From: Escherichia coli
Lineage (GTDB): Bacteria; Pseudomonadota; Gammaproteobacteria; Enterobacterales; Enterobacteriaceae
Direction: 5' to 3' (one strand)
Assembly: GCF_003334255.1 (NCBI RefSeq)
Contig: NZ_QOWU01000106.1
DNA: 4,925 nt
Made by a program: the position numbers and the translations under genes. Of this stretch, positions 351-3,981 are shown in pieces. The notes beneath the pieces were generated by a model. It was not told the DNA's origin and searched no databases. It saw only the letters and a program-made list of their open reading frames with translations. Position 1 is the stretch's first letter. Each line of letters begins with the position of its first letter.

Positions 351-509
351 CTACTTACCGGATTCGTAAGCCATGAAAGCCGCCACCTCCCTGTGTCCGT
401 CTCTGTAACGAATCTCGCACAGCGATTTTCGTGTCAGATAAGTGAATATCAACAGTGTGAGACACACGATCAACACACACCAGACAAGGGAACTTCGTGG
501 TAGTTTCAT
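351..509 (-). CDS. hok: Hok toxin (type I toxin-antitoxin, small membrane-depolarising peptide, 52 aa)
   Basis: Manual translation of the minus strand from ATG (complement of 507-509) to TAG (complement of 351-353) gives [52 protein letters not shown]. From memory this matches Hok of plasmid R1 / FlmA of F essentially residue for residue. It has a hydrophobic N-terminal transmembrane segment, lies wholly inside the overlapping mok frame, and sits immediately downstream of psiA as in IncF plasmids. Confidence 0.92.
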
Positions 510-567
510 GGCCTTCTTCTCCTTGCGCAAAGCGCGGTAAGAGGCTATCCTGATGTGGACTAGACAT
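355..567 (-). CDS. mok: Mok (modulation of killing) leader ORF overlapping hok; its translation is coupled to hok translation
   Basis: 70-aa ORF in the track that overlaps the hok CDS in a different frame, the defining arrangement of hok/sok-family loci. ATG at complement of 565-567 with GAGG about 8 nt upstream on the minus strand. Mok has no known independent function. Confidence 0.7.
523..551 (+). promoter_or_regulatory. Candidate sok promoter (-35 TTGCGC, -10 TATCCT, 17-bp spacer), located inside the hok/mok coding region
   Basis: Hexamers read directly from the plus strand; the position gives a transcript of Sok-like length ending at the hairpin/U-tract near 612-623. Match to the sigma-70 consensus is moderate (4/6 and 4/6). 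Confidence 0.4.
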
Positions 568-623
568 AGGGATGCCTCGTGGTGGTTAATGAAAATTAAC
601 TTACTACGGGGCTATCTTCTTTC
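558..623 (+). ncRNA. sok: Sok antisense RNA (about 65 nt), antitoxin of hok; boundaries approximate
   Basis: Plus-strand transcript predicted from a candidate promoter (TTGCGC 523-528, 17-bp spacer, TATCCT 546-551). It is antisense to the mok SD/start region (mok ATG at 565-567). It ends in a long imperfect hairpin (about 574-612, apical stem GUUAAU-GAAA-AUUAAC at 585-600) followed by a U-rich tract (613-623). Length and position match what is known of Sok; the exact 5' and 3' ends are not determined. Confidence 0.55.
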
Positions 624-685
624 TGCCACACAACACGGCAACAAACCACCTTCACGTCATGAGGCAGAAAGCCTCAAGCGCCGGG

Positions 686-720
686 CACATCATAGCCCAT
701 ATACCTGCACGCTGACCACA
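686..720 (-). promoter_or_regulatory. Candidate hok/mok mRNA promoter (minus strand: -10 TATGAT at complement of 689-694, weak -35 TGGTCA/GGTCAG around 712-718)
   Basis: Best sigma-70-like -10 on the minus strand between the psiA stop (789) and the mok start (567). A start near 682 would give a full-length mRNA of about 400 nt if the 3' end is near 285. The -35 is weak, which fits a weak constitutive hok promoter, but the assignment is uncertain. Confidence 0.25.
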
Positions 721-788
721 CTCACTTTCCCTGAAAATAATCCGCTCATTCAGACCGTTCACGGGAAATCCGTGTGATTGTTGCCGCA

Positions 789-1508
789 TCACGCTGCCTC
801 CCGGAGTTTGTTCGGCACCATCCACCGCTCCATCTCACGGACAGCGTGACCGGCCTCTCTTGCTGCAAGACTGGCTTCCGCAATAACCTGCCAGAACGGC
901 ATATCCTGCCACTGCCAGCGTTCCATTCCGGCCAGTGACGGAAAACGCTCGCCCCACTGCCAGAACAGGGTTTCCAGGTCATGCTCTGCCACCCGGTCAC
1001 TCCAGCGTGCATGCCAGCTTCCGACTGTTTCCGGCGAATGGAATGCCAGTTCGATTTCAGCCTGAGCGACCAGCGCCTGGTACGCACGGGCTTTCTGCTC
1101 TGCCTCCCTCGCCTGCTGGCGGCTGTACTTCTGCATGACCAGCGCGGATTTATGGCGACTGCGTTCCCTGACACGAAACCGCACCGACGGGAACAAGCGC
1201 TCTGCTGCATCACCGGGAAGGGGAAGGAGGCAGACCTCGCCCTGTGTTTCAATCAGCACATCGATGGCATACAGCCACTGAAGACGGTTGCCGTGCAGTT
1301 CTTCTGCGGTCAGGGACGGCATGAAAAATCGCAGGTCAGACAGCGATATCCTGCGGCTTCCGTTCAGACAGCGGAAAAACGCACCCGCATACGGATATTC
1401 AGCCAGCGTGTTACCCTGATGGCGGCGTTTTTCGGTCTCCGCCACCGCCCGCCATGCGGCCTGTTGCTCTGTGCTGAGAGGAACCAGTGCCTGTGAACGT
1501 GCGCTCAT
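789..1508 (-). CDS. psiA: PsiA, plasmid SOS inhibition protein A (239 aa)
   Basis: 239-aa ORF beginning [19 protein letters not shown], recognised as PsiA of IncF plasmids. ATG at complement of 1506-1508 is preceded on the minus strand by GGAAGGAGG with a 6-nt spacer. The start overlaps the psiB stop (ATGA). Stop TGA at complement of 789-791. Confidence 0.95.
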
Positions 1509-1939
1509 GCCTGACCTCCTTCCGCCATCAGGATATGAATGATGTCGTTAACGCTGTACCCCTGCGCATCCAGTGACGCCGCCAGTGCCAGTGAATGGCT
1601 GACAGCTTCCGGTGCAAACCGCCGCTGCACCTGAACCACCGCAAACGGCTCACCACCGGCATTCACCAGAACCAGCACCCAGACCTGAGAGACGTCTCCC
1701 GGCGAACATAATGCCAGGTGGAAACGTTCGTGGGCTGGCGTGAAACGAACCTGGACGGGGAAAAAGCCCCCGAACTCACTGCCATACTCGCCATTCATCA
1801 TCCAGTTAGCCGGTGCGTCCACTTCACGCATCACCTCGTGAGTGAGATTACGGCGCATATCGCTTCCCGCAGCACGGATATCTTCATATTCCTGTGCGTT
1901 CATGGACTGCAGGGCATTCAGGGTCAGTTCAGTTTTCAT
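1505..1939 (-). CDS. psiB: PsiB, plasmid SOS inhibition protein B (144 aa); binds RecA and limits SOS induction in the recipient during conjugation
   Basis: ORF translating [32 protein letters not shown]..., recognised as PsiB. The track ORF begins one codon earlier at a GTG (complement of 1940-1942); I call the ATG at complement of 1937-1939, which has AAGGGAGA 7 nt upstream on the minus strand. Confidence 0.95.
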
Positions 1940-1958
1940 CACGGTATCTCCCTTGCTG

Positions 1959-1993: not shown

Positions 1994-3952
1994 TCAGGCG
2001 GCATCAGCCAGGTTATCGGTGCGTTCAGTGGCATCTGTCTGTGGATGTGGTGCACACATCCAGCCTGGAACCCAGCGGTTGTCTTTCATATGGTGCTCTG
2101 CATGTTCAGCCGCATCACCTTTCTTCATCTTCTCCGCGTCCCGTGCGGCACCGGACAGTCCGGCCTCATTCAGGGCTGCGATAATCTGCGGCTTTTTCAG
2201 GTGTCCGAAGAAGTTTGCTTTTGTCGGCTGCCACCAGTCGCGCATGTGGAATCCGATAGCGCTTTCCAGCGAGTCAAGCGGACTGCGTGACGTGTGACCA
2301 CACTCACGGGTCTGGACACCGTTAAGGCTGCATGCGGTGCAGAAACTGAGCAGGGATAACAGCACCTCCTGACTGAGGGACAGGAATGTCGTCATGTCCC
2401 GTGACCATCCCTCCGGCAGCAGGGCTGCAAGACGGGATTTTTCTGCCATCAGCGCCATGAATGCGGCACCTTCCTTCCCCGATGGCGCATCGCTGGTCAG
2501 CGAATAATGTTCACATTCCAGGCTGATTTGTGCTGGTTTACTGTACGCCCCGCTGCCAAACACATTCAGGCAGAGCGTCCATGCCAGCAGTGCCAGAGAT
2601 TTGTCCGGCTGCTGCATGAGTGCCGCCTGGACTGCCAGCGTGCGCTCTGAGGACATTTTCGTCAGCAACGGCAGGCTGATTTCCTCCACTGACGCTTTCT
2701 CCTGCACCTGTTCCGTGCGGTCAGCGTCGTCAGTCGCGTCATCTTCACTGCGCAACTGCACACCACGCTGGACACATACGTTGCCATAACGCCAGGACAC
2801 CACCACACCGCTTCCGGCACGTATCTCCGGCGTCCACGCTCTGACCTTCGCCATGCAGCGCATCAGCTTCATTTCTGCTTCCAGCAGGTCGGATTCCTCA
2901 CACTGGTTTTCCAGCGCGTCGTAACGCGTCATCAGTTCGTTCAGGCGTTCGTCTTCCGCCTCCGTCAGCACCGCTTCCGGCTCCGGCAGACAGCGGTATG
3001 TTCCGGCATCCTCACGGCACTCACCGACAGGCTCCATGCGCCCGGCGCACCATTCCCAGCCTTCGGCTTCCCGAAGGTGTTCAGCGACAGCCTGGAGTTT
3101 TTCCAGCAGGGCGGCATCGAGCGCCACGCGGTCGACATAACCGTCCCCGTCATCGCTGAACAAATCGGTGCGCAGTTCGTCTGGCGAGAAGGCATCAGCC
3201 CCCACGAAGCGGAATTTACTGTTCCCAGCCACCGCCACTTCACTTTCGGTCACCAGACGACGAATGGTCTGTACTTCCGGTTTACCGCCCCATCCCGACT
3301 GACAGGCGGCTTCAAACACCTGCACCTGACGCGCGGTGTCGTTCTCCAGCGCCAGCGCCTGACAGTGTTCGGTGGTGATGCGGTCTTCTGCCAGCGCATC
3401 GAGGATGACAGGCGCAAGGTCAGCCAGTTTCAGCATTCGCTGAACGTGGCGGGGTGAATAGCCCAGCAAATCACCGATGTGTGCAGGTGTTTTGCCTTCC
3501 TGCGCCATTGCGCGGAATCCGGCAATCTGTTCGGCAGGGTGCATATCCCGACGATGACCGTTCTCGGTCATTGATGCGGCAGTCGCCAGCTCCTGCGGAA
3601 TAATTTTTACGCGGACAGGCCAGTCAGCCGGAATGATGTCACGCTCTGCCAGCATGTTGAGTGCTGCCAGTCGGCGACCACCTGCGGCGACACCGTAACG
3701 GTCACCTGGCAGGGCATGAACAACCAGATTCTGCAGCAGGCCGACTCCCTTAATGGAATCAGCCAGTTCACTGACGGACTCCGCAGAATACGGCACCGTG
3801 CGCACATTCAGCGGTGATTTAATCAGTGAATCCAGCGGCACGCTCACTTCCTCCGTCTGCGCCAGCAGGGCAGACAGTGCAGTTTCCTGCGTTTTTACAG
3901 ATTTACGGCTTGCTTTGCGGGTGGTTTCTGGTTCACACTTCGTTACAGGCAT
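1994..3952 (-). CDS. ParB/Srx N-terminal-domain protein (652 aa) with HTH and a long uncharacterised C-terminal region; leading-region ParB-like protein
   Basis: The N-terminal roughly 200 aa shows ParB N-domain hallmarks: box-I-like LIKSPLNVRT, arginine-rich box-II-like VAAGGRRLAALNMLAE, and a downstream HTH-like segment TPAHIGDLLGYSPRHVQRMLKLADL. The remaining roughly 430 aa has no motif I recognise (no DPPY/NPPY methyltransferase motif, no obvious nuclease motif). Start called at the second ATG (complement of 3950-3952), which has AAGGGG with a 6-nt spacer; the track's first ATG (3958) abuts the SD. Confidence 0.88.
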   Translation of the reverse strand: MPVTKCEPETTRKASRKSVKTQETALSALLAQTEEVSVPLDSLIKSPLNVRTVPYSAESVSELADSIKGVGLLQNLVVHALPGDRYGVAAGGRRLAALNMLAERDIIPADWPVRVKIIPQELATAASMTENGHRRDMHPAEQIAGFRAMAQEGKTPAHIGDLLGYSPRHVQRMLKLADLAPVILDALAEDRITTEHCQALALENDTARQVQVFEAACQSGWGGKPEVQTIRRLVTESEVAVAGNSKFRFVGADAFSPDELRTDLFSDDGDGYVDRVALDAALLEKLQAVAEHLREAEGWEWCAGRMEPVGECREDAGTYRCLPEPEAVLTEAEDERLNELMTRYDALENQCEESDLLEAEMKLMRCMAKVRAWTPEIRAGSGVVVSWRYGNVCVQRGVQLRSEDDATDDADRTEQVQEKASVEEISLPLLTKMSSERTLAVQAALMQQPDKSLALLAWTLCLNVFGSGAYSKPAQISLECEHYSLTSDAPSGKEGAAFMALMAEKSRLAALLPEGWSRDMTTFLSLSQEVLLSLLSFCTACSLNGVQTRECGHTSRSPLDSLESAIGFHMRDWWQPTKANFFGHLKKPQIIAALNEAGLSGAARDAEKMKKGDAAEHAEHHMKDNRWVPGWMCAPHPQTDATERTDNLADAA

Positions 3953-3981
3953 AATCATCCCCTTATAATTGCTTATGTCCT

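Follow-up and report, generated by a model that had tools for sequence, protein, structure and literature searches.

A conserved ATGA overlap with an intragenic Shine-Dalgarno sequence at the psiB-psiA junction of plasmid leading regions, and its probable role in partial translational coupling

Genes whose stop and start codons overlap can be translationally coupled, and two models have been put forward for such pairs: termination-reinitiation, and the unfolding of a masked ribosome site by translation of the upstream gene (PMC12548453). The -4 spacing, in which the two codons form the sequence NTGA, is the commonest junction across prokaryotes (PMC12548453). Strict coupling was reported for 13 of 14 overlapping pairs, with 4 of 5 for Escherichia coli (Huber et al., 2019; PMC6728339). 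In the same study a Shine-Dalgarno (SD) sequence aided reinitiation in four of the five E. coli pairs tested, and local structure was proposed to block de novo starts in the E. coli pairs that were strictly coupled (PMC6728339). The junction between psiB and psiA, two genes of the leading region of conjugative plasmids, has the architecture of these pairs and is considered here.

The window that was analysed is a stretch of 4,925 nucleotides of E. coli DNA (RefSeq assembly GCF_003334255.1, contig NZ_QOWU01000106.1). Its genes lie in the order ssb, a DUF905 gene, a ParB-like gene, psiB, psiA, and hok/mok/sok (flm), all on the minus strand. PsiB (PF06290/NF010255) is followed directly by PsiA (PF06952/NF010258) within this synteny, and the window is the classical leading region of F-like (IncF) plasmids, containing the psiB-psiA SOS-inhibition module. 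Across the psiB-psiA junction, a stretch of 1301 nt agrees with E. coli plasmid NZ_CP024281 at 100% identity, and the plasmid records with a match number more than 5000. The two genes were sequenced around 1988-1990, and their overlap is annotated in thousands of records; the original sequence note for psiA is reportedly that of Loh et al. in 1990. Examples of public annotations that already carry the 4-nt overlap are CP056877 and an IncI-gamma/K plasmid.

The psiB coding sequence occupies positions 1505..1939 of the minus strand and encodes 144 amino acids, from an ATG at 1939 to the stop codon TGA at 1507-1505. A GTG lies one codon upstream of this ATG, and the listed open reading frame is 1505..1942 if the GTG is taken as the start and ends at 1939 if the ATG is taken. 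The product scores 274 bits against the NCBIfam model NF010255 (conjugation system SOS inhibitor PsiB; cutoff 100), with profile positions 1-144 matching residues 2-145 of the GTG-started frame. Because the profile aligns from residue 2 of that frame, ATG 1939 is taken as the true start, which agrees with GenBank, where the same 435-nt coding sequence is annotated. PsiB also matches the solved structure PDB 3NCT ("Protein psiB"; E 8e-87).

The psiA coding sequence (789..1508, minus strand; 239 amino acids) runs from the ATG at 1508-1506 to the TGA at 791-789. Its product scores 422 bits against NF010258 (plasmid SOS inhibition protein A; cutoff 243), and residues 1-238 align with profile positions 1-238; a structure search for PsiA found no solved structural relative. 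The start assignment is unambiguous, since this ATG is the first possible start past an in-frame stop and no other is plausible for 62 codons, the next in-frame methionine being residue 63; CP056877 annotates the same start. Both proteins exceed curated NCBIfam cutoffs, and psiB and psiA are genuine, adjacent, same-strand members of their families. The gene names proposed in the earlier note, made from the sequence by eye, are correct.

Upstream of psiB, the ParB-like gene (3958..1994, minus strand) encodes 654 amino acids. A GC-rich 12-bp inverted repeat with nine G-C pairs and a 3-nt loop (1957-1983) sits in the 54-nt gap between the stop codon of this gene, at 1994, and the psiB SD. The repeat is not an obvious terminator, because no T-run follows it on the transcribed minus strand; it might form an mRNA hairpin that affects the translation or stability of psiB. 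The family-consistent start of ssb is ATG 4827 (minus strand), which is preceded by a good SD, GAAGGAGA, and SSB profiles align from residue 14; the mechanically delimited reading frame has 13 extra codons upstream, to ATG 4866. On the other side of psiA is the hok/mok-type toxin locus (flm; 351-683, minus strand), with a Hok family toxin (125.8 bits), a mok-like reading frame on the minus strand that overlaps hok (355-567), and the sok antitoxin (507-683; Rfam RF01794, 88.9 bits). The Rfam scan returned no match other than sok.

A second stop/start overlap lies at the far end of psiA, where the stop codon TGA (791-789) and an ATG (789-787) form TGATG on the minus strand, a -1 spacing. The ATG opens a putative gene of 45 amino acids (789..652, minus strand) that has GGGAGG ahead of it, within the codons CGG GAG GCA GCG of the psiA tail. 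The same TGATG is present in F (locus L002, near 10688), and in other lineages unrelated reading frames overlap the psiA stop codon by 1, 4, 8 or 11 nt.

At the psiB-psiA junction the minus strand reads, in the psiB frame, CTG ATG GCG GAA GGA GGT CAG GCA TGA, giving the protein tail L-M-A-E-G-G-Q-A before the stop; in the psiA frame it reads ATG AGC GCA CGT (MSAR). The psiA ATG at 1508-1506 and the psiB TGA at 1507-1505 have two bases in common and together form the ATGA at 1505..1508, a -4 spacing. The psiA SD, GGAAGGAGG (1515..1523, minus strand), consists of the psiB codons GAA GGA GGT (E140, G141, G142) and the last base of the preceding GCG. Its AGGAGG core occupies 1520-1515 and is separated from the ATG by a 6-nt spacer, TCAGGC (1514-1509). 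The earlier note had described both elements, the stop/start overlap and an SD embedded in the codons for the PsiB tail MAEGGQA; the overlap proves exact to the base on direct reading, and the SD GGAAGGAGG lies where it was said to be, at the complement of 1523-1515.

Published work places the two genes in one transcription unit. The single-stranded promoter Frpo2 of F drives an early operon that comprises ssb, yfjA, yfjB, psiB, and psiA (PMC9849209), and ssi3 drives the equivalent IncI operon (PMC10104558). A search of the minus strand between 1500 and 2000 found no sigma-70-like site and no internal psiA promoter inside psiB; nor was a terminator-like site found between psiB and psiA on the coding strand. 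Given these publications, and with no promoter-like site found inside psiB, we infer that psiB and psiA are co-transcribed.

The junction was compared across psiB loci from three sources: F itself (NC_002483) together with one IncI/K plasmid; contigs encoding distant representatives of PsiB clusters (33-55% identity); and one genome per species, scanned for a peptide pattern of PsiB that yielded 36 loci in Enterobacterales genera. A single pattern, drawn from a 10-sequence alignment, was used for the scan, and the survey is thereby limited to Enterobacterales-type PsiB; an alignment of 27 PsiB sequences contained no stretch conserved enough to serve as a genome-scan pattern. In a tblastn search of plasmids with PsiA, the matches listed were IncF and IncI records, and among them distant lineages were not reached.

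In 45 of the 49 loci psiA lies directly downstream of psiB. The junction is ATGA in 39 of these 45, GTGA in five, and TGATG (-1 spacing) in one, so that the -4 spacing is found in 44 of 45 loci, which comprise 39 distinct junction sequences and PsiB identities down to about 33%. NTGA and a GGAGG-type SD occur alike in F, in IncI/K, and in the distant lineages. When the 39 distinct junctions are anchored on the psiA start, upstream conservation is strong in one block alone, GGAGG(G) at positions -12 to -7, which holds 1.1-2.0 bits per position. Nearby third codon positions mostly hold 0.15-0.95 bits; the exception is position -18 (1.83 bits), which is the third base of a conserved CTG/ATG codon for Leu/Met. 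Judged by these alignments, the junction and the position of the SD hardly vary across PsiB lineages, even at identities as low as about 33%.

Some database entries probably have other origins than their labels suggest. Of three psiB-psiA contigs labelled as Streptomyces morookaense and as an Oscillibacter metagenome-assembled genome, two are 92-93% identical to the window (L014 and L016) and one is more distant (L028); plasmid DNA of enterobacterial origin has most likely contaminated the assemblies concerned. Two PsiB "homologues" (P0127 and P0182) differ systematically from the family (A>V, R>C/W, P>L/F, H>Y); these are artefacts of the protein collection that look like translations of C-to-T converted (bisulfite-like) reads, and were left out of later alignments.

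The psiA SD is also strong. Pairing of the 20 nt before the psiA start with the 3' end of 16S rRNA gives a duplex of -12.4 kcal/mol, the strongest among the gene starts of the window, compared with -8.4 to -8.8 kcal/mol for ssb, the ParB-like gene, psiB, and hok. A GGAGG-type SD with an anti-SD energy of -9.1 kcal/mol or lower is present at all 39 of the distinct junctions, while only 3.3% of control 20-nt windows, taken within the psiB and psiA bodies of 39 related loci, reach -9 kcal/mol, and 0.2% reach -12. As a word, AGGAGG shows no enrichment in the window, with 4 occurrences where 2.2 are expected. The placement of the psiA SD is far from random.

Codon usage within the SD bears on whether the bases or the encoded residues are maintained. 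Outside the F/IncI group, all 33 distinct junctions spell the glutamate of the SD as GAG, a codon that accounts for 54% of glutamate codons in psiA bodies; the codon before it always ends in G, though the residue varies (M, Q, S, A, R, L, G, V, E). In the F/IncI group the AGGAGG is built from GAA GGA GGT, which includes GGA, the glycine codon that psiA bodies use least. The E-G motif at the C-terminus of PsiB falls on the psiA SD, and these codon choices are signs of selection for the SD bases; as the sequences share ancestry, selection at the codon level is given no formal probability.

The E-G motif may be kept also for PsiB itself, which would count against reading the conservation at the level of bases. 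Four psiB loci lack psiA: two of them (L011 and L013) have lost the motif together with the ATGA, and the other two (L007, 2501-2935; L008, 1192-1629) keep E-G-G with GGAGG-like bases; these last two reflect either a recent loss of psiA or a role of the PsiB tail at the protein level. In L008 the ATGA is retained and is followed by a reading frame of six codons. The AlphaFold model of PsiB has a pLDDT of 94.8, with low confidence limited to the final four residues, and E140 is the end of the last predicted helix. As E140 ends this helix and L007 and L008 keep E-G-G, the tail may be constrained twice over, by its role in the protein and by its role as a ribosome site.

The second of the two general coupling models, RNA unfolding, would have the psiA SD and AUG buried in a hairpin that is opened only by ribosomes translating psiB; the SD could, for example, pair with UUCCUCU at psiA codons 9-11. 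A local fold of 76 nt does pair GAAGGAG with this UUCCUCU stretch, and in most lineages the AUGA is followed by runs rich in pyrimidines (UCCC...). However, local folds show no extra stability relative to shuffled sequences (z = -1.28 for 76 nt and z = -0.03 for 161 nt), and in a longer context the SD is located in a loop. The mean probability of being unpaired is 0.46 for positions -15..+3 of psiA, compared with 0.41 for the transcript background and 0.44-0.61 for the other gene starts, which puts the accessibility of the site at the 65th percentile of the transcript. Minimum free energy structures vary between the nine lineages folded, and RNAalifold found 0 conserved pairs over 21 diverse junctions. 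Since folds, accessibility, lineage comparison, and RNAalifold are all null, a conserved mask over the psiA site is unsupported and coupling by unfolding is very improbable; this leaves SD-assisted reinitiation and direct binding of 30S subunits to a strong, accessible SD.

An SD close to a stop codon may also have a different role, as in prfB or dnaX, where such a site stimulates programmed frameshifting; here the product would be a PsiB-PsiA fusion. The internal SD lies near the end of psiB, and a few database proteins contain both PsiB and PsiA domains. Against this, the sequence GGU CAG GCA UGA offers no slippery heptamer (no X XXY YYZ and no site of the CUU UGA type), psiA lies in the -1 frame, these codons do not allow tRNAs to re-pair, and the PsiA family profile begins at the ATG. 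A frameshift fusion, as judged from these codons and the family profile, can be regarded as excluded for practical purposes. The dual-domain proteins themselves (P0005, P0039, and P0113, each single-contig) were considered as frameshift or read-through products and rejected: they are in-frame deletions far from the junction, joined at microhomologies of 1-3 residues (AE, SLA, P).

The probable mechanism at psiB-psiA is SD-assisted termination-reinitiation accompanied by some independent initiation, with coupling that is partial and not absolute. psiB and psiA would act as neighboring cistrons of the leading-region operon ssb, yfjA (DUF905), yfjB (ParB-like), psiB, psiA, whose early transcription in the recipient comes from the single-stranded-DNA promoter Frpo2/ssi. 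A ribosome completing psiB would stop at the UGA, where the psiA AUG begins one base earlier and has AGGAGG upstream of it at a distance of 6 nt, and pairing of the SD with the anti-SD would hold the small subunit or the whole ribosome until it restarts on psiA; this reinitiation step is one that we infer. Free 30S subunits probably also initiate at psiA directly. The net result would be synthesis of PsiA at the same times and places as PsiB, at a roughly fixed ratio, in the short burst of zygotic expression. De novo initiation at psiA is to be expected alongside reinitiation because the SD is very strong, the site is not less accessible than others, and no occlusion is conserved; partial rather than absolute dependence is expected because the local structure that would block such starts is absent here. 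An experimental test of psiB-psiA coupling was not found in the searchable literature.

The same features weigh against this combination of reinitiation and direct initiation, since de novo initiation is favored by a strong SD at a site of ordinary accessibility (0.46, with the background at 0.41). Taken to its end, that argument gives an overlap without dependence: free ribosomes would translate psiA through its own SD, the ATGA would represent compact packing that is hard to mutate, and blocking the translation of psiB would, mRNA polarity aside, leave PsiA output unchanged. The psiA SD is the strongest in the window at -12.4 kcal/mol, its ribosome site is not sequestered, and no structure is conserved in 21 lineages. 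Independence of this kind is documented for bioF (PMC6728339), pvuIIC/R (PMC2997769), and atpB/atpE (PMC3241655), and the overlap of the psiA stop codon by unrelated downstream genes in several registers suggests general compaction. The ATGA is moreover mutationally "sticky" and of the spacing most common in all prokaryotes; its conservation is partly expected without selection for coupling, since a change of the T or G destroys start and stop together. On the other hand, the sole systematic test found most overlapping pairs to be coupled, including 4 of 5 from E. coli, and a ribosome terminating directly on the psiA start, with the SD in register, makes some reinitiation hard to avoid. Full independence of psiA is a serious alternative, though less likely than partial coupling.

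The earlier note had concluded that the junction implies coupled expression of the two proteins. That some coupling exists is a reasonable inference, given that 13 of 14 overlapping pairs were strictly coupled (PMC6728339) and that the architecture is conserved family-wide. The word "implies" goes too far where dependence of PsiA on PsiB translation is meant: the SD is very strong, accessibility is ordinary, and no occluding structure is conserved.

A more specific reading would give the arrangement a purpose. The fixed -4 junction and SD would be selected for a strict proportion of PsiA to PsiB during the minutes of single-stranded-DNA expression, PsiA, as partner or antagonist, might adjust the block of RecA by PsiB, and the E-G tail would be kept mainly as RNA and not as protein. 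This reading is speculative and, on balance, unlikely. We know of no function for PsiA, so its synthesis being tied to that of PsiB would give a modest clue to joint action in plasmid establishment. Deletion of psiA lowered the mating-induced SOS signal in pED208 (PMC8406263). The overlap also matters for how mutants are built: deletions of psiB and C-terminal fusions to it remove or displace the psiA SD and start codon. As such constructs disturb this site, published phenotypes of ΔpsiB strains or psiB fusions may include altered PsiA levels.

The psiB-psiA junction is real, conserved, ordinary, and already known, a textbook -4 overlap with an intragenic SD. What is new is limited to the family-wide survey, in which the junction and SD position are near-invariant and the E-G motif of PsiB falls on the psiA ribosome site. 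Overlapping pairs that are translated independently (E. coli bioF, PMC6728339; pvuIIC-pvuIIR, PMC2997769; chloroplast atpB-atpE with its AUGA, PMC3241655) resemble psiB-psiA in combining a stop/start overlap with a ribosome site of the downstream gene's own; their independence has been tested experimentally. The -4 (NTGA) pairs coupled by termination-reinitiation (PMC6728339, PMC12548453) resemble psiB-psiA in being same-strand neighbors in an operon setting, a probable one for psiB-psiA, with ATGA and an intragenic SD at canonical spacing. psiB-psiA differs from these coupled pairs in that its SD is unusually strong and no structure blocking de novo starts is predicted or conserved. The closest relatives are the psiB-psiA pairs of F (NC_002483), R6-5, R100, and the IncI1 plasmids ColIb-P9 and R64, in which gene content, gene order, and junction are unchanged. 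The F junction differs from that of the window at two bases no more than 15 nt away from the ATGA; the PsiB tail ends in EGGQA in the window, as in IncI-like plasmids, and in EGGQV in F, and residue 3 of PsiA is A in the window and V in F. Nothing material distinguishes the window from these plasmids.
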